A stretch of DNA of 38,418 bases, taken from the NCBI GenBank assembly GCA_022712415.1, contig JALAGN010000056.1, positions 1 to 38,418 on the forward strand, given 5' to 3'. The number at the start of each line of letters is the position of its first letter. Position 1 is the first letter of the stretch. This document shows, in pieces, positions 8,021-33,881 of the stretch. The notes under the pieces were generated by a model that was not told the origin of the DNA, searched no databases, and saw only the letters and a list, made by a program, of their open reading frames with translations. The position numbers and the translations under genes are program-made. The stretch is from Spiroplasma sp. Its GTDB lineage: Bacteria > Bacillota_I > Bacilli_A > Mycoplasmatales > Mycoplasmataceae.

Positions 8021-9223
8021 TTAATTTTTAGGTAGGAAAATAATTTTTTTATTTTTTTCTTTCCCTTTTGCTGTTACAACGGCTGAAAAATGCGAAATAT
8101 CCTCAATTACACCGTTGGTGTCTTGGATATAGATTAACTCATCTTTTCCCTTTTTAATTTTTTTATTGTATATTTCAACCACTGGTTGATCTTTTAAAGC
8201 AAAATAGTAGTCTGTATCGTACCCAAGTGCAGCAACCTCCGCTTTTTTCGCTTCCACATCTTCTGGATGACAGACAGCGGTTTCTAAAAACTCACGATTA
8301 ATAATGCGTTGCGCAAAATCCTTTAGGATTGCATCGTCCTCGTGTTTTGCGGTTTGAATTAATTGAATAAAACTACAATCGTCTAACTCTAAATAAGCAT
8401 TGACGTTAAATTCTGTTCCATCAACTAACGGTTGTACCAAACTATAGTCACCTTTTAATGGTTGACCACTTTTTATCAAATACGATAAACGTTTAAATCA
8501 CATATGCAATGTTTCGTCAAACGCAAACGAAGTCTTATGACAATACACTTGATTGTACATGTAGTATCTTCCTAGCAAGTACGCCTCAATGGCATACATC
8601 GCTTTAATGGGAAAGACAATTTTTTCATCTTCAATTTTGATGTGGCGAATAATTCAATCGACATCAACTTTCGAATATGTAACTCCCGCATTAATACTAT
8701 CGCGCAATAAATAATCCAAGCGATCAGCATCCAACTGTGAAGAAACCAATAAATTCATTAGGTTATCTTCGCATTTACCTTCGATAATGTCGGCTACCAC
8801 TTTGGGATCAATTCCGTGTTTCACCAGAATTTTATTGATCTTAGTTTCAGGACTAGTAATAATTAACGACGAATAATGTTCGTGTTTAAAATGATTGACA
8901 CCCACTTTTTCAAAAGAATGTGAGAAAGGACCGTGACCAATATCGTGTAACAGTCCCGCCACCTTAACAGTTAAACGATTCTTCTCATCGTCAAACGGTT
9001 TTTGGTTTAAGATGTTCGGGTTCTCTAAAAATTTTGTAACCAAATGGTAAACACCCAAACAATGTGCAAACCTTGTGTGTGACGCTCCGATAAAAACGTG
9101 TTGCGCTCCACCGAGTTGTGCAATTCTTTTTAGTCTTTGAAATTCCGAAGTGTTAATTAATTCATAAATTACTTTATCATTAATTGAAATGTCACCGTGG
9201 ACATTGTCTCTAATTGTTGTCAT
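8021..9223 (-). CDS. HD-domain phosphohydrolase (dNTP triphosphohydrolase-like)
   Basis: Track ORFs 8021..8479 and 8654..9223 are in the same frame. I checked that 8480-8653 contains only TGA stops. HCLGV and LLHDIGHGPFSH motifs are present. The product is 400 aa. Confidence 0.8.
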
Positions 9224-9232
9224 TAATTCACC

Positions 9233-10681
<1,449 letters not shown>

Positions 10682-11794: not shown

Positions 11795-12682
11795 TTAGTC
11801 CTCTGATTCATAACCCATTAGCTCAAGAATTTTATTTAAATCCTCAACGCCATTATATTTAAGAACAATTTTATTATCTGAAATACTTACTCTTGTTCCA
11901 AATCTGATCATCAATTTATTTTCTATTCCATTCAACAATGGATCTCTTTTTTTAATTACTTTTGTCGTGACATCGTCACCACTTTGTAATTTTTTAATTA
12001 GTTGTTCCACATCACGAGCAGTTAAATTATTTGCCACGATGCGATCGAAAACTTCTTTTAGTAATTTTTCATTTGATAAAATTGAAAGCAATGGTTTTGC
12101 TTGTCCCATTGAAATTTCTTTTTGCAGCATTGCATCTTGAATGTATTGTGGTAAGTTGACCAAACGTAAAATGTTAGCAACATGCGAACGCGATTTACCA
12201 ACACGTTTTGCAATTTCATCTTGTTTTAGGTTTAAAGATTTTGCTAACTGTTTGTAAGCAACCGCTTCCTCAATATCAGTTAGGTCAACCCGTTGAATAT
12301 TTTCAATAATCGCAAACTCTTCCATTTGTTTAGAGTCAAGTTTGGCAATCACAACCGGAACTTCTTTGAGGTTCGCTAATTTTGCAGCACGGTATCGACG
12401 TTCACCCGCTACGATTTGATAAGAATTTTTTGCAACTTCGTTGACGATAATCGGTTGAATGATTCCGTTTTGTTTAATTGAATCACTTAACTCTTGAATC
12501 TCCACATCACTAAATATTTTTCTTGGTTGAAACGGATTGGGTTGTAAAGTTGAAATTGCAACTGTGCTTGTCAGCTCTTTTGCTTTCTCGGTGTCGTCCT
12601 CTAGTGAACCCACTAAATCAGTGACTGACTCACCAAATATTTCGTCAAGACCTTTAAAGTTATATCTTTTTTTAGTAGCCAT
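11795..12682 (-). CDS. parB: Chromosome partitioning protein ParB/Spo0J
   Basis: Intact 295-aa ORF with the ParB box GERRYRAA and an HTH region. Confidence 0.9.
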   Translation of the reverse strand: MATKKRYNFKGLDEIFGESVTDLVGSLEDDTEKAKELTSTVAISTLQPNPFQPRKIFSDVEIQELSDSIKQNGIIQPIIVNEVAKNSYQIVAGERRYRAAKLANLKEVPVVIAKLDSKQMEEFAIIENIQRVDLTDIEEAVAYKQLAKSLNLKQDEIAKRVGKSRSHVANILRLVNLPQYIQDAMLQKEISMGQAKPLLSILSNEKLLKEVFDRIVANNLTARDVEQLIKKLQSGDDVTTKVIKKRDPLLNGIENKLMIRFGTRVSISDNKIVLKYNGVEDLNKILELMGYESED

Positions 12683-24277: not shown

Positions 24278-24439
24278 ATGGCAGGTAACGATTTCGATTC
24301 AAGATGCTTTAAATGTGTTGCAGAAATGCAACAAAAAGGAATGGGTGGCAAAGGTGCTAGCGTTTTAGCTGGTAGAATGCAATCCGGACTAGTTGGTCAA
24401 AACCCAGATGATATCTACGTTTGTCCAAAACATAGTTAA
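24278..24439 (+). CDS. 53-aa Cys/His micro-protein (CxxC...CxxH, zinc-ribbon-like); function unknown
   Basis: This gene is absent from the ORF track because it is under 60 aa. The strong SD AAGGAGGT lies 7 nt before ATG 24278. The translation is MAGNDFDSRCFKCVAEMQQKGMGGKGASVLAGRMQSGLVGQNPDDIYVCPKHS. The stop is TAA 24437-24439. It is bracketed by its own promoter and terminator. Confidence 0.65.
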   Translation: MAGNDFDSRCFKCVAEMQQKGMGGKGASVLAGRMQSGLVGQNPDDIYVCPKHS

Positions 24440-26306: not shown

Positions 26307-26400
26307 GATGACACCTCTTTAAGCACGATTTTTTCGTTATTTAACTGTTTATATAGTATAATTATACACGAAGGGTTTTTCTATTAGAGGAGGAAATTAT

Positions 26401-27444
26401 ATGGCAACATGAGACCGTAAAAAAGAGTTTGTCGCTCTTGACTTAGGGACAGCTAACACAATTGCTTATTTAGGTGGACAAGGTATTATTTATAACGAAC
26501 CATCGACAATGGCATACGATACTCATACAAACACAGTAATCGCAGCTGGTGAAGCTGCTTACGATATGGTAGGAAAAACTAACGACGATGTTCGTATGGT
26601 AGTACCATTGGTTGACGGGGTTATCGCTGATATGGACGCAGCAAAAGATCTTATCAAAATTATTTTTTCACGTATTAAATTATCAGATATCTTAAAAAAC
26701 GCATTGGTAGTTCTTGCTTGCCCTTCAGGAGTTACTGAATTAGAAAGAACAGCTTTAAAACAAGTTGTTTTCGACATGGGAGCAAGAAAGGTTCTAGTTG
26801 AAGAAGAAGTTAAACTTTCTGCAATTGGAGCTGGAATCAACATTAGCATTGCTAGTGGGCACTTAGTAGTTGACATCGGTGGAGGTACAACAGATATCGC
26901 TATCATTTCTGCTGGAGATATCATTTTATCAAGATCAATTAAAACTGCTGGAAAACATTTCGATGAAGAAATCAGAAAATACATTCGTGCAGAATACAAC
27001 GTATTAATTGGTATTAAAACAGCCGAAAAAATCAAAATGGAAATCGGTTCATTAACTAAATTAGACAATGGACGTACATTCCGTGCTTACGGACGTGACG
27101 TTATTTCTGGATTACCACGTGAAGTTGTAATCTCACCTGATGAAGTTAAAAACGCATTACTAGCACCATTCTCAAAAATTACAGACTTGATCGTTGAAGT
27201 AATGGAAAATACACCTGCTGAATTAGCTGGAGATATTATCCGTAACGGAATCACAATCTGTGGTGGTGGAACTTTAATCCGTGGAATTGATACATACTTT
27301 GAATCAATCTTCCAATTAAAAGTTACAAAAGCACAAGACGCTTTATTAACAGTTATTGAAGGTGCAAAAGAATATGAAAAACAAGTTGACAAATGATTAG
27401 AAGTTGTTGAATTACGCGAAGCTCGCGAATACCGTATTAAATAA
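26401..27444 (+). CDS. mreB: MreB paralogue a (canonical motifs)
   Basis: ATG 26401 follows GAGGAGGAA. The N-terminus is MATWDRKKEFVALDLGTANT, with a TGA-encoded W at codon 4. The track start at 26509 would remove the phosphate-1 motif. DIGGGTTD and ICGGGTLIRG are present. The frame reads through TGA 27394 to TAA 27442-27444. The product is 347 aa. Confidence 0.92.
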
Positions 27445-27446
27445 GA

Positions 27447-27471
27447 AAGTTCCCTTACGGGACTTTTTTTT
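27447..27471 (+). terminator. Rho-independent terminator after mreB a
   Basis: aagt(t)ccc ttac gggactt followed by ttttttt. Confidence 0.7.
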
Positions 27472-27572
27472 ATGCCAAATTTTATTTTGGAAATAATTAG
27501 AATAGTCGTTTTACTATTACACCGATTTGATGTATTATGAATATAGATAATGTCAAATGGGGGTAAAAAATA

Positions 27573-28607
27573 ATGGGAAAAATGGATTGAACCGATAAAA
27601 AACACATGGTTGTTGATTTTGGAACTGCATCAACAAGAGTCTACATTGAAGGCAAAGGAATTGTTTTCAATGAGGCTTCAGTAATTGCTGTTAATACAAA
27701 AACTAAAAAAATCGTTGCCATTGGCGAAGATGCTAAAAAATGTCTCGGAAAACAAAGCAAATATATTCGCGTTCACACCTTACAAAGTAATGGTGTCATT
27801 GTTGATATTCGTATGTTTGTTTTATTCCTTGGCGAAGTCTTTAAAAAATATACTGAAATTATTAAATCAACATACGTGACACTTGCTTGCCCTCCTGGAT
27901 TAACTCCTGTTGAAAAAACCGCTTTAATTAAATCAATTGAAAGCTTAGGTTGCTTCTTTGTGGATCCACAAGATGCTTCAAAATTAGGTCTTTATGGAAC
28001 TGGTGTTGATATCACAAAACCAGATGGTCGCCTTGTTTTAGACATGGGTGCCGGAAAAGTGACTTGTGGGATGGTTTCTTCAAACGAAGTTGTTGTACAA
28101 AAAAGCTTAAAAATTGGTGGTAACTACCTTGATAATGAAATTATGAAAACACTAAAAGCTGATTTAAAAATTGCTGTCGGTGAAGTGACAGCTGAAAAAG
28201 TAAAAAATGCTGTCGCAACAGCATTAAAAACGAAAAAAGGATTATCAGTTAAAATTTACGGATATGATGTGACATCAATGATGCCAACCGACAAAGATGT
28301 CACTGAAGATGATTTACAAGAGGTAATGAAAAAAGCCATCTACCAAATCACTTCATTAGTCACAACAGTCCTAGAAGAATCACCTTCAGAACTGTCAGAA
28401 GATATCATTAAAAATGGAATTGTTGTTGTTGGAAACTTTGCTAAACTAAATGGTTTAAAAGTTTACATGGAAGACTTCTTCGAAGTACCAATCACAATTG
28501 CTAAAAATTGTGGAACAGCCGTGCTTGACGGTGGAATTAAATACCGCGATCTTTCACGTGAAGAATACGAATTTAAAATGAAAAAAATTAAAGAAACTGA
28601 ATATTAA
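27573..28607 (+). CDS. mreB: Divergent MreB paralogue b (degenerate nucleotide-binding motifs)
   Basis: ATG 27573 lies 8 nt after GGGGGT. The N-terminus is MGKMDWTDKKHMVVDFGTAST. The length and order of actin-fold blocks are MreB-like, but the motifs read DFGTAST, DMGAGKVTCG and VVGNFAKLNG. The product is 344 aa. Confidence 0.8.
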
Positions 28608-28639
28608 AAAATCTCCCACCAATCATAGTGGGAGATTTT
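28607..28639. terminator. Bidirectional terminator between mreB b (+) and the 68-aa gene (-)
   Basis: A perfect 12-bp stem forms between aaaatctcccac (28608-28619) and gtgggagatttt (28628-28639), with an 8-nt loop. The convergent stop codons lie at 28605 and 28641. Confidence 0.8.
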
Positions 28640-28640
28640 G

Positions 28641-28847
28641 TTATTCAACCAATAGTAGAATACCGGCAACTAACCCTAAAGGTCATGCAAATATAATTGC
28701 ACATACACCTAATGCGATATGTGGTTGACCGTCTGTTTGTGCTTTTTTAGCTGCTAATGTCATCGGAATCATTCATGCCAATGGTAATAGTAAAAACGAA
28801 AAAAGAACAGTTTGAACTATCATTAAAATATAACTTGCTTGTCTCAT
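28641..28847 (-). CDS. 68-aa two-TM membrane micro-protein; function unknown
   Basis: This gene is invisible in the track because two in-frame TGA split it. ATG 28845-28847 follows GGAGTGGAGGA. The translation is MRQASYILMIVQTVLFSFLLLPLAWMIPMTLAAKKAQTDGQPHIALGVCAIIFAWPLGLVAGILLLVE. The stop is TAA 28641-28643. I checked every codon. Confidence 0.65.
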
Positions 28848-28910
28848 ACTTAATCCTCCACTCCTATTATATCGCATATTTTAGGAATTGAAAGGGACTG
28901 TACCAAACGC

Positions 28911-28956
28911 CCCACCCCTTAGGAAGATATTTATCTTGTTATTCGGTGGGTTTTTT
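28911..28956 (+). promoter_or_regulatory. Orphan terminator-like structure upstream of the mreB c promoter
   Basis: cccacc (28911-28916) pairs with ggtggg (28945-28950). The enclosed region contains a small inner palindrome (aagata..tatctt). The structure is followed by tttttt. No plus-strand CDS ends here. Confidence 0.35.
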
Positions 28957-28964
28957 GTTATAAT
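28956..28964 (+). promoter_or_regulatory. Extended -10 (TGTTATAAT) for mreB c-d
   Basis: TGTTATAAT lies about 93 nt upstream of ATG 29057. Confidence 0.45.
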
Positions 28965-29056
28965 TGAACCAGATTATATGTAACACGATAACTGTTATAT
29001 GTGATTCAAATGTAAAAAACAAACAAATTTATATATTGAAAAAGGAGACCAGAAAT

Positions 29057-30085
29057 ATGGCTATAGGATCAAAAAAACCTACTTTCCTATCAATGGACTT
29101 AGGTACAGCAAACACACTTGTTTACATTGCTGGACAAGGAATCGTATACAACGAACCTTCAATCGTTGCATACCGTATTAAAGAAAACAAAATTATTGCC
29201 GTTGGAGCAGAAGCATACAAAATGATCGGAAAAGGAAATAAAACTATCCGTGTCGTTAGACCAATGGTTGATGGTGTTATTACTGACATCCGTGCTACTG
29301 AAGCACAATTAAGATACATCTTTACAAAATTACGTATCTCAAAACAATTAAGAAACTCAATTATGTTATTAGCATGTCCATCAGTTATTACTGAATTGGA
29401 AAAAACAGCGTTGAAAAAAATCGCAGTTAACTTAGGAGCAGACCAAGTCTTCGTTGAAGAAGAAGTTAAAATGGCCGCACTTGGTGGAGGGGTAAATATT
29501 TACGCTCCAACAGGAAACCTAATCGTTGATATGGGTGGGGGAACAACTGATATTGCTGTTCTTGCATCAGGTGACATCGTATTGTCAAAATCAATCAAAG
29601 TTGCCGGTAACTACCTAAACGATGAATGTCAAAAATTCATCCGTTCACAATATGGACTAGAAATCGGTTCAAAAACTGGTGAATCAATCAAAGTTAACAT
29701 CGGATCATTAACTAAATACCCTGATGAAAGACGTATGAAAGTTTATGGACGTGACGTAGTTTCAGGATTACCACGTGAAATCGAAATTACTCCTGAAGAA
29801 ATTCGTGAAGTATTAAAAGTACCAGTATCACGTATTATTGACTTAACAGTTCAAGTATTAGAAGAAACTCCACCTGAATTAGCTGGAGATATCTTCAGAA
29901 ATGGTATTACAATCTGTGGTGGTGGAGCCTTAATCCGTGGTATTGATAAATACTTCGCAGATACTCTACAATTACCAACAAAAGTTGGGGAACAACCATT
30001 ATTAGCCGTTATTAACGGAACTAAAAAATTCGAATCAGAAATTTGAGAAGTAATTAAAGCTCAAAGAATGCACACTGAAAACTAA
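29057..30085 (+). CDS. mreB: MreB paralogue c (canonical motifs)
   Basis: ATG 29057 follows AAGGAGA. The N-terminus is MAIGSKKPTFLSMDLGTANT. DMGGGTTD and ICGGGALIRG are present. The frame reads through TGA 30044 to TAA 30083-30085. The product is 342 aa. The track start at 28964 is an unsupported upstream extension. Confidence 0.92.
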
Positions 30086-30133
30086 TCCAAATTTAATTTA
30101 AGTGCAAACAATTAATTAAAGGAGGAATCTCGA

Positions 30134-31183
30134 ATGTACAACGAAGTAAAACGACCTTATATTTCACTTGACCTGGGAACAAGTAATATTCTTGCTTATG
30201 TTTCAGGACAAGGAATCGTATATGATGAGCCCTCACTAATGGCATATGACATTCGTACTAATAAATTAGTTGCGAGTGGTTCAGCTGCATATGAAATGAT
30301 GGGTAAAACAAATGATGAAATTAGAATGGTCACACCTCTAGTTGATGGAGTTATCTCCGATCTAGATGCGACAAAAGACTTATTAAATCATATTTTTAAT
30401 CGTTTAAAAATGATGAACTTCTGAAAAAGTTCAATTGTTCTCTTGGCTTGTCCAAGTGGAGTAACTGAATTAGAACGTGATGCGTTGAAACTTGTTGCCA
30501 AAGGCATGGGAGCATCATTAGTTGTAATTGAAGAAGAAGTTAAAATGTCCGCTGTTGGTGCTGGACTTAACGTTGAATTGCCACAAGGTCATTTAGTTAT
30601 TGACATTGGTGGTGGAACAACTGATATTGCTATCATCTCAGCTGGTGAAATTGTAGTTTCAAGATCAGCCAAAGTTGCAGGGAAATATTTCAATGATGAA
30701 ATCTTGAAATATATTCGTTCTGAATACAACGTTTCAATCGGTATTGTTACCGCTGAAAAAGTGAAAAAAACAATTGGTTCATTAGTTAAATATCCTAACG
30801 AACGATCAATTCAAATTTACGGACGTGATATCGTCTCTGGTTTACCAAAAGAAGCTAAAATTGGTTCTGAGGAAATTAGAAACGTCCTATTATCAGCATT
30901 CAGTAAAATTACTGATGTTGTAATTGAAGTTATGGAAAACACACCTCCTGAATTAGCAGGTGATATCATGAGAAATGGTATTATGCTATGTGGTGGTGGA
31001 GCGTTGATTAGAAATATTGATAAATATTTCTTCGACATCTTCCAATTGCCAACTAAAATTGCAGCCGACCCTCTATCATGCGTTATCGAAGGAACAAAAG
31101 CTTATGAAAAAGTTGTTCTAAGACACATTGAAGAAGGTATGTATGTTGACCAACAAAAAACTTATCTTGAAGGACTTAAATAG
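30134..31183 (+). CDS. mreB: MreB paralogue d (canonical motifs)
   Basis: Track ORFs 30134..30424 and 30443..31183 are joined by TGA 30422 (NFWKSS). AAAGGAGGAA precedes the ATG. DLGTSNI, DIGGGTTD and LCGGGALIRN are present. The product is 349 aa. Confidence 0.92.
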
Positions 31184-31188
31184 TCCGC

Positions 31189-31217
31189 AACCCAGGGTTT
31201 AACTCTGGGTTTTTTTA
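31189..31217 (+). terminator. Rho-independent terminator after mreB d
   Basis: aacccag (31189-31195) pairs with ctgggtt (31205-31211), followed by ttttttt. Confidence 0.75.
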
Positions 31218-31275
31218 TGCTTAAATCCCCTTTTTTCTTTTCATAAAATATATAATATTTTGGTGGAGGTGACCT

Positions 31276-31956
31276 ATGATCACAATTAATAATCTCAAGA
31301 AAACATTTCGCAAATACACCATCCTCGATATTGACAATTTAGTGATTGGCGATAACGAGAAAGTGGCAATTGTCGGAAAGAACGGTGTTGGAAAGACAAC
31401 GCTTTGCGAAATCATCATGGGAACTCAGGCCCCAACAAGTGGCAAAATTGAAACAAGTATTGATGACTTACGTAAGAATGCCGTGTTTCAAGAAACTGGT
31501 TTCTCAAACGATGTTAACATTTACAGCATCGCAAAGTTCTACCAAGATATCTTTCGCGCTCGCGATTTTGACCTTGACGCATCCTTTGAAAAGTATGAAA
31601 TCGCTGATTTAAAAAAACGTCGCTACAACCGTTTATCGGGTGGACAAAAGCAGAAATTTAAATTGTTAATTTCCCAACTAAACCAACCCAACCTCTTATT
31701 ATTGGATGAGTTGACAACCTCACTTGATTACGAGTGACGCCAAAAAATCTTTAAAATTCTCAATCAAATGAGTCACGAGAACAAGGCAACTATTCTCTTG
31801 ATTTCACACGACCCCGAAGAGATTGGTGCTCTTTGTGATCGCGTAATCATTTTAAAGGATACAAAAATATTTAAAGACTTTACCTTAAAAGGTGACGCCA
31901 AAGAGCGAGTCGAACTTGTGAGAAAGGAATTAGCTTGAGATGAAACCACTATATAG
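31276..31956 (+). CDS. ABC transporter ATP-binding protein
   Basis: Track ORF 31276..31737 extends through TGA 31735 and TGA 31936 to TAG 31954-31956. It has Walker A GKNGVGKTT, the signature LSGGQKQK, Walker B LLLLDE and the H-loop ISHD. The SD is GGTGGAGGTGA. The product is 226 aa. Confidence 0.88.
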
Positions 31957-32701
31957 ACAAACACTATTAATGTATAGCAAGAGCATTTATTTTATCGTCC
32001 TTGGACTAGCGCTGCAAATCGCTTTTGTTTTCATTTTTGGTTTCGCCATCGCTGATGGCATTGCTAAATCATTAATCAATAACGGAACCGATGTGACCCG
32101 AGCTGACGTGTTGACGACAATGGTCGGAAACATTACGCTTATTTCAGGCCTTTCAATTGGTTATATGGCCTTTTCGTTTGATTTGATCTCACTTAAAGCA
32201 ACAAAACAATTTAAACAAATCTCACTTGCTAACATTACGAGAGCAAAATACTTAATTACTTTATTGCTTGTGAATATTACCTTTTTACTAATTACCGTTT
32301 TAATTCAAGCAATTCTCTTAATTGCCATCTTTCATATTCACTTAACAGCAGAAGTGATTCTTTCCCTCACAATCATGCCTGTGATTTATACAATTATCGG
32401 CTTTACCACCGCTTTAGTCACAACCGGAATTTGTGATAGTCAAAAAGTGATGACAGTCCTTGTGATGTTGGGATTTTACATCATGATGTTTACAAGTGGA
32501 ACCTTTATGTATTGAGAACCTTTCTCAATTTACGCAAAAACAATTCCAATGATCACACCAATGGGTTGTCTCTTGCAGTTAATGAGCTTTTCCTTTGCAC
32601 CAGAACATTCGTTTACCGAAATTTGATGAGCTCTACCCATCTTTATTGTTGAAATGACAGCATTAATTTACGGCGCTTACAAATTATTCAAATGAAATTA
32701 G
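31940..32701 (+). CDS. ABC-2-type permease (about 6 TM helices)
   Basis: ATG 31940 overlaps the ATPase gene by 17 nt. Track ORF 31940..32515 extends through TGA codons at 32513, 32624, 32627 and 32693 to TAG 32699-32701. The protein is hydrophobic throughout. The product is 253 aa. Confidence 0.75.
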
Positions 32702-32731
32702 CAACGGAATGACATTTAGAGTGCTTGTTTA

Positions 32732-32760
32732 TTGATATCAACGGAATAAATGGATATAAT
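32732..32760 (+). promoter_or_regulatory. Near-consensus sigma-70 promoter for mreB e
   Basis: TTGATA (32732-32737), a 17-nt spacer, then TATAAT (32755-32760), about 30 nt before ATG 32790. Confidence 0.6.
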
Positions 32761-32789
32761 TAAAATACTTAAATAAGGAGGAATTATTA

Positions 32790-33848
32790 ATGAAATTTGA
32801 GGATCGTACATATATAGCGCTCGACTTAGGGACAAGTAATATTTTAGCTTATGTCTCAGGGCAAGGAATCGTATATAATGAACCATCGATTATTGCATAC
32901 GATAATATGACAAACAATTTATTAGCATTGGGGCAAGAAGCTTATGACATGTTAGGAAAAACACACGAGAACATCAGTTTAGTTGTTCCAATCCGTGATG
33001 GGGTTATTACTGACCTTGATGCGGCTCGTGATATGTTAAAACATATCTTTGAAAAACTAAAAATGATTAATGACTGAAAAGATTCAATTATCTTATTAGC
33101 ATGTCCAAGTGGTGTTACCGAATTAGAACGTGATGCATTAAAACAAGTTGCTTACGATATGGGTGGAGAACTTGTAATCGTGGAAGAAGAAGTTAAAATG
33201 TCAGCCATTGGCGCTGGAATTGATATTGAATTACCAAAAGGGAATGTTGTTATTGATATCGGTGGAGGAACTACTGATATCGCGATTATTTCGGCTAACG
33301 ATATTATTATTTCAAGATCAGTTAAAGTTGCTGGAAATGTGTTCAACGAAGAAATTAAAAAATACATTCGTTCAGAATACAACGTCTCAATCGGGGAAAG
33401 AACATCAGAAAACGTTAAAATGGAATTAGGATCACTGACTAAATACAAAGGTGAAAGAAATATTTCAGTTTACGGGCAAGATATTGTTTCTGGATTACCA
33501 AAAGAAGTTATCATTTCTTCTGAAGAAGTAAGAAACGTGTTTGTCAACGCGTTTAGTCGTATTACCGACTTATTAATCGAAGTAATGGAAAATACACCTC
33601 CCGAATTAGCTGGTGACATTATTACAAATGGTTTAACAATTTGTGGTGGTGGTGCTATGATTCGTGGAATCAAAGACTACTTCACAGGAATCTTTAATAT
33701 TCCATGTAAAATCTCAAGCAACCCATTAGTTGGTGTTGTGGAAGGTGCACAAGCATTCTACAAAGTAATCAACAAACGTTTAATGGAAGGTTACTACGGT
33801 AAAAACGGAGATACTCTTCGTCGTAAAAACAACCCATCATTAACTTAA
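32790..33848 (+). CDS. mreB: MreB paralogue e (canonical motifs, basic C-terminal tail)
   Basis: Track ORFs 32790..33077 and 33159..33848 share one frame and join via TGA (INDWKDS). AAGGAGGAA precedes the ATG. DLGTSNI, DIGGGTTD and ICGGGAMIRG are present. The C-terminus reads GKNGDTLRRKNNPSLT. The product is 352 aa. Confidence 0.92.
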
Positions 33849-33852
33849 GACT

Positions 33853-33881
33853 AAAAAAACCAACTTGCGTTGGTTTTTTTT
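33853..33881. terminator. Bidirectional terminator between mreB e (+) and tatD (-)
   Basis: aaaaaaccaac (33854-33864), loop ttgc, gttggtttttt (33869-33879). A perfect stem flanked by an A-run and a T-run. Confidence 0.8.

Follow-up and report, generated by a model that had tools for sequence, protein, structure and literature searches.

The mreB array studied here lies in a stretch of 38,418 nucleotides from Spiroplasma sp. (contig JALAGN010000056.1 of assembly GCA_022712415.1; "the window" in what follows), where five mreB genes (a to e) are accompanied by an ATP-binding cassette (ABC) ATPase/permease pair and by a 68-codon open reading frame (ORF) with two predicted transmembrane (TM) segments, referred to below as the micro-ORF. 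The locus is a further case of the Spiroplasma mreB array already described, here in a GC-rich lineage of the Apis type that has not been cultured, with probable passenger genes specific to that lineage. Published work describes Spiroplasma MreBs as polymerizing under the membrane into a ribbon that sets helicity and drives kink-based swimming. We are largely confident in a joint reading in which the MreBs of the window would work in this known way, c and d would form an operon, and the ABC pair would be an independent operon for a predicted exporter, whose transcript may run on into e. Because of their synteny, restricted distribution and instability, we infer that the ABC pair and the micro-ORF are passengers and no conserved component of the ribbon.

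The locus is readable only with genetic code 4 (TGA = Trp); under table 11, the mreB genes look fragmented. With code 4, the array consists of five full-length, uninterrupted ORFs, all on the plus strand: a (26401–27444, 347 aa), b (27573–28607, 344 aa), c (29057–30085, 342 aa), d (30134–31183, 349 aa) and e (32790–33848, 352 aa). These are, to the nucleotide, the five mreB genes of a first-pass annotation made from the sequence alone, and all of them match Pfam MreB_Mbl (PF06723), with 267–428 bits against a cutoff of 27 and about 320 of the 327 profile positions covered (E = 1.4e-120, 2.2e-79, 3.3e-128, 2.2e-126 and 4.1e-121 for a to e, respectively). The motifs DLGT(A/S)N, D(I/M)GGGTTD and CGGG(A/T) are intact in a, c, d and e, while the nucleotide-binding motifs of b are degenerate (DFGTAS, DMGAGKVT and VGNFA), again as the earlier annotation had it. 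Its by-eye ranking of the paralogues, with a, d and e closest to one another, c further away and b highly divergent, agrees with the pairwise identities (a-d 60%, a-e 56% and d-e 64%; 50–54% for c against a, d and e; 30–34% for b against all others).

Classes were assigned using a neighbour-joining tree of 81 Spiroplasma MreBs (100 bootstraps), with references set by their position in the loci of S. eriocheiris, S. poulsonii, S. chinense and S. taiwanense, plus the sequence of the solved structure 7BVY, which we take to be S. citri MreB5. Paralogue a belongs to the SMreB2 class (bootstrap 95/100), grouping with the position-1 MreB2 of S. eriocheiris, and shares 91% identity with the gene that opens the array in S. 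chinense and S. taiwanense. Paralogue b belongs to the SMreB3 class (98/100). Its best match among solved structures is 7E1C (E = 7.7e-76), labeled only "MreB" in the PDB search and presumably S. eriocheiris MreB3; the aligned segment of 7E1C reads DIGGGKTS, a departure of the same kind as that in b. The MreB3 of the window is only 44% identical to the MreB3 of the nearest named species, whereas its MreB2 and MreB4 reach 91–95%. Paralogue c falls in the SMreB4 class (Apis subclade, bootstrap 100), with 86% identity to S. eriocheiris MreB4 and 94–95% to the position-3 genes of the Apis clade, and d groups with 7BVY and S. eriocheiris MreB5 in the SMreB5 class (bootstrap 87). Paralogue e sits in a clade of its own (bootstrap 100), made up of 352-aa proteins seen only in Apis-type species and placed beside MreB5, inside the MreB2/5 group; it is 73–80% identical to the 352-aa proteins of S. 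chinense, S. apis, S. turonicum and others, and its counterpart adjoins tatD in both S. chinense and S. taiwanense.

The first-pass annotation had proposed a phylogeny for assigning classes 1–5. In the 81-sequence tree, a to d represent classes 2–5, none of the five MreBs of the window belongs to class 1, and e is an MreB5-like duplicate. By sequence, the window holds classes 2, 3, 4 and 5 plus a duplicated class 5, rather than the canonical classes 1–5. One could instead take e as an SMreB1 that has moved into the array, which would complete a full class 1–5 set; the number of genes equals the number of known classes, and mreB1 is found at a separate locus in the Citri clade. We give this almost no credence and rejected it on the tree, as the MreB1-type proteins (336–346 aa) group with MreB4, while e lies in the strongly supported 352-aa clade beside MreB5, and the MreB1-type gene of S. 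chinense is about 0.9 Mb away from its mreB array. That nearly every species of the Apis group has a duplicated SMreB1, 4 or 5 has been published already (Takahashi et al. preprint). Our literature search found nothing relevant on an "MreB6" in Spiroplasma.

Synteny was put together from 12 single locus look-ups covering about ten taxa. In the window, the array is flanked upstream by the divergent rnmV (RNase M5) and downstream by the convergent tatD, followed by mnmE, yidC, rnpA, rpmH and dnaA; with mnmE-yidC-rnpA-rpmH-dnaA beyond tatD, the array thus adjoins oriC. The frame rnmV...tatD-mnmE-yidC-rnpA-rpmH(-dnaA) is also present on strain contigs of the same species, and classes 2-3-4-5 follow in this order between rnmV and tatD in the window as they do in S. 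eriocheiris, S. chinense, S. taiwanense and others. Between rnmV and tatD, S. eriocheiris has MreB2, three inserted genes (HhH-GPD, ada and ogt), MreB3, SPE_1229, MreB4 and MreB5; S. chinense has MreB2, MreB3, a 104-aa gene (hypothetical protein), MreB4, MreB5 and e; S. taiwanense has MreB2, MreB3, argS, MreB4 and e; strain TIUS-1 has five contiguous mreB genes; and S. poulsonii has MreB4 and MreB5. The S. clarkii array lies in the same rnmV-tatD frame, and a Logan contig (L019) carries MreB3, MreB4, MreB5, a 131-aa ORF on the minus strand and e. Five contiguous mreB genes are thus an already known arrangement (S. chinense, TIUS-1). The first-pass annotation had supposed that the best-studied species have their paralogues split over several loci. 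This is half right. It holds for S. citri, which has mreB2-mreB3-HP-mreB4-mreB5 (HP, hypothetical protein) at one locus and mreB1 and fib elsewhere (Lartigue et al. preprint 10.1101/2021.11.16.467908), and for S. poulsonii, whose mreB genes are reported at three loci, whereas S. chinense and TIUS-1 have five contiguous mreB genes. A second mreB cluster, outside the rnmV-tatD frame, was seen in S. sabaudiense (L023, CP006934, 878–10053), where it is interrupted by two genes for ribosome-inactivating protein (RIP) toxins.

The gaps between b and c and between d and e hold different genes from species to species, and these are mutually unrelated: in BLASTP and TBLASTN comparisons among the micro-ORF, SPE_1229, the 104-aa gene of S. 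chinense and the other slot genes, no match had an E value under 0.3. We propose that the cluster between rnmV and tatD would be an ancestral Spiroplasma cytoskeleton cluster of MreB2–5, joined by the extra MreB5-like paralogue of the Apis clade, and that the MreB3-MreB4 spacer and the spacer after MreB5 would act as permissive slots, filled independently with unrelated genes in different lineages. In the window, the first slot would hold the orphan membrane micro-ORF on the opposite strand, and the second a self-contained operon for an ABC-2-type exporter, with its own -10 and Shine-Dalgarno (SD) sequence and translational coupling. Such slots have taken in foreign genes time and again (argS, guaAB, DNA-repair genes, RIP toxins, ABC pumps) and would be natural insertion-tolerant sites for engineering.

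The ATPase gene (31276–31956, plus strand, 226 aa) matches ABC_tran (PF00005) with E = 3.9e-22 and 79.8 bits against a cutoff of 25, and has the motifs GKNGVGKT, LSGGQKQK, LLLLDE and SHD. It is overlapped by 17 nt by the gene for a polytopic, putative ABC-2-type permease of 253 aa (31940–32701, plus strand). No NCBIfam family was matched at its cutoff by either protein; for the ATPase, the top four matches are of ABC-F, ECF and PotA type, with the ABC-2-type PmtC fifth and DrrA sixth, both far below cutoff. The permease scores 16.7 bits against ABC2_membrane (PF01061; cutoff 26.9), aligning to positions 8–206 of the 211-position profile, and its single-sequence AlphaFold2 model has a pLDDT of 52. 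Among 5.8 billion proteins searched, the permease matched only proteins from the same species. The pair would be an ordinary efflux pump or one of the immunity type.

The sole orthologous pair outside the species lies at the same position in the closest relative, L001 (contig JALNTZ010002483 of a Zophobas morio assembly), and its permease scores 35.6 bits against ABC2_membrane, above the cutoff. L001 and the window are 96%, 94%, 89% and 89% identical at the amino-acid level for MreB a, c, d and e, respectively, compared with 61% for the ATPase and about 40–42% over the full length of the permease. The reading frame of the L001 permease is also interrupted by a TAG in place of a conserved Trp, and guaA-guaB is inserted between it and e (L001 13128–17707). 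L001 itself is bacterial, although it belongs to a beetle assembly and its genes are annotated as those of the beetle (Zmor_008870 and others); it has two ORFs for membrane proteins between MreB2 and MreB3 (8360–9545).

Two metagenome contigs carry altered versions of the cassette. In strain contig L007 (JGI 3300066021), a clean deletion of 1,069 bp (window 31801–32869) truncates the ATPase and removes the permease and the first 26 codons of mreB e. This is one of three clean deletions without junction microhomology in L007 (14501–16189, 18342–20266 and 31801–32869), which also take most of mnmG, and purB with part of purA; L007 is either a degenerating strain or an assembly artefact. Contig L018 (JGI 3300060762; 1,963 bp) aligns to window positions 31908–33867 with a sharp breakpoint near 32605. 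Before it, DNA divergence is about 22% through the 3' end of the ATPase gene and the permease gene; after it, there are 3 differences in 1.26 kb through mreB e, all of them synonymous (dS = 0.013 for e). The L018 permease allele has 82% protein identity to that of the window, with dS = 0.97 and dN/dS = 0.13, and the mosaic reflects either allelic replacement by recombination or a chimeric assembly. If both contigs are faithful, the ABC cassette would be functional but dispensable and exchanged by recombination, which is how an accessory pump behaves, rather than a core partner of the cytoskeleton.

The micro-ORF lies on the minus strand at 28641–28847 (68 aa, with two TGA codons), with GGAGGA 7 nt upstream of its ATG and a promoter-like site at 28906–28878, and about 20 contigs carry it annotated as a hypothetical protein. 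No homologue was found in Pfam, in NCBIfam or at any related locus, including that of the closest relative. We ruled out that it corresponds to SPE_1229 or to the hypothetical protein of S. citri, to which it has no similarity and from which it differs in strand and size; SPE_1229 is a lipoprotein-like protein of 244 aa encoded on the plus strand. We regard the micro-ORF as probably a real gene, though a species-specific one. It is less likely, but a serious alternative, that it is no gene at all and represents either a frame left open by chance or what remains of a decayed gene, within an enlarged b-c spacer. Such an origin would account for the missing homologues and for L001, where the b-c spacer is only 190 nt long and contains no such ORF, and we roughly estimate that the probability of so long an ORF in a 450-nt spacer, over six frames, is a few percent. 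Strain contigs L002–L006 do not help to decide, as with a polymorphism of about 0.45% they show 0 variable sites in the micro-ORF and no selection signal can be read. What tips the balance towards a gene is the strong SD sequence at ideal spacing, together with the upstream promoter-like site and a 3' end set against a bidirectional terminator, the clean two-TM hairpin with its basic loop, and a variant with two substitutions (V48L and W55L) that keeps the frame. The b-c spacer of the window is, moreover, about 260 nt longer than those of relatives, which is roughly the size of this cassette.

Hairpin/T-run terminators had been described after a, b, d and e, and we confirmed all four. The intrinsic terminator after a (27445–27472, plus strand) has the arms GAAAGTCCC-loop-GGGACTTTC followed by T8, as seen from both sequence and fold. 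A bidirectional terminator common to b and the micro-ORF (28608–28639, both strands) has a 14-bp stem with A/T runs on either side; the intrinsic terminator after d (31189–31216, plus strand) has a 10-bp stem with 5 GC pairs and a T-run; and a second bidirectional terminator (33853–33880, both strands), with the structure A7-CCAAC-loop-GTTGG-T8, separates e from the convergent tatD. As also stated in the first-pass annotation, neither the 48-nt c-d gap nor the stretch after the permease shows such a terminator. The near-consensus promoter that it had noted for e is present at 32732–32760 on the plus strand (TTGATA-17-TATAAT, an 11/12 match to the sigma-70 consensus), and in relatives the spacers upstream of e also show a -10 TATAAT, about as far from the SD as in the window. 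This layout of terminators and promoters supports the transcription units that had been proposed, namely a, b, c-d, the ABC pair (with possible read-through into e) and e, which remain predictions; e would be transcribed from its own conserved promoter despite any read-through from the ABC pair.

These results do not support the idea, put forward in the first-pass annotation, that the ABC pair and the protein of the micro-ORF are candidates for anchoring the ribbon to the membrane or regulating it. That annotation had named a synteny comparison beforehand as a test, and in most of the relatives sampled the inserts are missing from the mreB locus: no orthologue of either was found within or next to the arrays of S. 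eriocheiris, S. poulsonii, S. chinense, S. taiwanense, S. clarkii, S. sabaudiense, TIUS-1, sp. DGKH1 and a Logan contig. On synteny, the absence of the inserts from relatives' arrays is the outcome that was to count against the idea. A narrower version, in which the ABC-2 pair and the two-TM protein anchor or regulate the MreB ribbon in this lineage, co-expressed with e, draws on the physical embedding of the inserts in the array, the absence of a terminator separating the permease from e, the unchanged position of the ABC pair in L001 and L018, and purifying selection on the permease. We consider even this version very improbable. Synteny already contradicts it, with the ABC pair missing from every other array examined and the micro-ORF lacking a counterpart even in L001, the closest relative. 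The permease changes much more quickly than the MreBs, is broken by a nonsense codon in the sister lineage, and is deleted in one strain contig and swapped for another allele in a second; and e has a near-consensus promoter of its own. In addition, two Spiroplasma MreBs alone confer helicity and swimming in a minimal cell, MreB5 with either MreB4 or MreB1 being enough. In the syn3B reconstitution, SPE_1229, which lies between mreB3 and mreB4, could be removed with helicity and swimming kept (Lartigue et al. preprint 10.1101/2021.11.16.467908; Kiyama et al. 2022, PMC9710875), and fibril was likewise removable.

Several points nevertheless weigh against treating the inserts as passengers. Since L007 and L018 are metagenome contigs, the deletions of the one and the mosaic of the other could have arisen in assembly. 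The permease, with its dN/dS of 0.13, is under purifying selection by this measure and is therefore a working gene. The ABC pair is co-oriented with the array with no terminator before e, co-transcription with e is possible, and the pair is found at an unchanged position in at least two, possibly three, related lineages (the window, L001 and L018). In S. sabaudiense (L023), an ABC ATPase and a 510-aa membrane protein lie, as an independent case, directly upstream of an mreB cluster; they are non-orthologous to the window pair, and we ruled them out as orthologues because the ATPases are 33% identical, a generic level, and the permeases show no match. Finally, the sampling of about ten taxa is not exhaustive, as the genome-wide scan gave few loci: a profile search of genome contigs with the MreB3 alignment returned five (four from Haloplasmataceae and one from Spiroplasma sp. 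DGKH1), and a metagenome scan with MreB3 returned only two distant loci (32–34%) and no intermediate relatives. With these points taken into account, we still favor passengers, and the result removes a false lead: inserts that are tempting as the long-sought membrane attachment of the ribbon would be, on the comparative evidence, recent and unstable.

A possible regulatory element lies upstream of paralogue c, in the leader of mreB4. Here, the promoter (-35 TTGTTA at 28936–28941 and TG-extended -10 TATAAT at 28959–28964; a 10/12 match with TG in a promoter scan) contains a hairpin and T-run (28908–28957, within the element at 28908–28964, plus strand), and a 37-nt stem-loop (28971–29007, plus strand; minimum free energy -11.5 kcal/mol, z = -4.0) lies at the predicted 5' end of the mreB4-mreB5 mRNA. 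Six Apis-type taxa (the window, L001, S. taiwanense, S. chinense, L019 and S. clarkii) share TTGnnn, a 17-nt spacer and a TG-extended TAWAAT before mreB4, with the 3' arm and T-run of a terminator hairpin sitting inside the -35/-10 spacer. S. eriocheiris, S. poulsonii and S. sabaudiense have the TG-extended -10 before mreB4 as well, and in all nine of these taxa a stem-loop of 37–43 nt starts about 7 nt after the -10. Each of the nine leader sequences folds singly into one hairpin (z = -2.0 to -5.6). Over the outer 11 stem pairs, 86% of cells are paired, compared with 29–47% in slid controls; compensatory changes occur in 5 of the 11 pairs, and the covariation score is above 500/500 shuffles, for a small sample (10 sequences) and an alignment fitted to the model. 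When run over 268 kb, the covariance model matched only leader sites, including that of sp. DGKH1, which was not used in building it. The extended -10 with the stem-loop thus occurs in ten taxa, which come from the Apis-type group, from the groups of S. eriocheiris and S. poulsonii, and from S. sabaudiense (window 28908–29007; L001 10790–10880; L008 12800–12893; L015 7565–7656; L019 1635–1726; L022 7620–7710; L016 8680–8769; L017 8730–8818; L023 3270–3359; L010 about 11960–12045).

Rfam gave nothing at gathering thresholds for the leader, with chance-level matches only at E <= 1, and we found no paper on an mreB4 leader, operon or stem-loop in Spiroplasma. We tentatively suggest, as a possibility somewhat short of even, that the leader may be an undescribed cis-regulatory element, either a 5' mRNA stabilizer or a protein- or RNA-binding operator, that insulates and doses the mreB4-mreB5 operon. 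In S. poulsonii, MreB1, 4 and 5 are expressed more strongly than MreB2 and 3, a bias that would be compatible with a stabilizer at the 5' end. The operon encodes two actins that are sufficient for swimming, and the leader, if functional, would be a first handle on the control of motor-actin stoichiometry.

Some features of the window outside the array were also recorded. Its overall G+C is about 35%, which is high for a Spiroplasma-type organism using code 4, the named species lying mostly in the mid to upper 20s; a GC-rich locus of Apis type with a very divergent MreB3 adds diversity for structure-function comparison. Positions 1–2300 have no ORF of at least 110 aa under code 4, a G+C of 27–32% compared with about 35% elsewhere, and no Rfam match, and are possibly a degraded or non-coding stretch. 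Directly after an ABC-F gene, a 53-aa ORF with Cys motifs (CxxC ... CPxH; 24278–24439, plus strand) is probably a conserved small zinc-ribbon protein; genes of 50–53 aa occupy the equivalent position in S. taiwanense, S. chinense and S. clarkii. None of the ORFs called across the 38-kb window was recognized by eye as fibril-like, no fibril sequence or profile having been searched, which agrees with the first-pass annotation; in other species, fib and mreB1 are located elsewhere in the genome, as in S. citri (Lartigue et al. preprint 10.1101/2021.11.16.467908).

The closest known counterparts of the locus are the arrays of S. chinense (CP043026, ~1.359–1.365 Mb), TIUS-1 and S. taiwanense, which have the same flanks (rnmV on one side; convergent tatD, mnmE, yidC, rnpA and rpmH on the other). 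Arrays of the S. chinense type share with the window the order MreB2-MreB3-[slot]-MreB4-MreB5-e, with five contiguous mreB genes, and their proteins are 77–95% identical to those of the window except for MreB3 (44%). Unlike the window, they have no ABC pair between MreB5 and e, and the MreB3-MreB4 slot, occupied in the window by the minus-strand micro-ORF, holds an unrelated 104-aa gene in S. chinense and argS in S. taiwanense; the window also differs in its higher G+C (~35%) and its very divergent MreB3. The S. citri/S. eriocheiris locus has the same four classes in the same order and chromosomal position, with a non-MreB gene between mreB3 and mreB4 as in the window, but it has neither the fifth, MreB5-duplicate gene nor the ABC pair. 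For the ABC pair itself, the known systems to compare are ABC-2 exporters of the DrrAB/PmtCD kind. As in these, the ATPase is short and has its Walker A, Q-loop, signature, Walker B and H-loop motifs intact, and the permease gene overlaps that of the ATPase and encodes a polytopic protein of about 250 aa. The window pair differs from them in that its permease scores below the Pfam cutoff and in being extremely lineage-restricted and fast-evolving.

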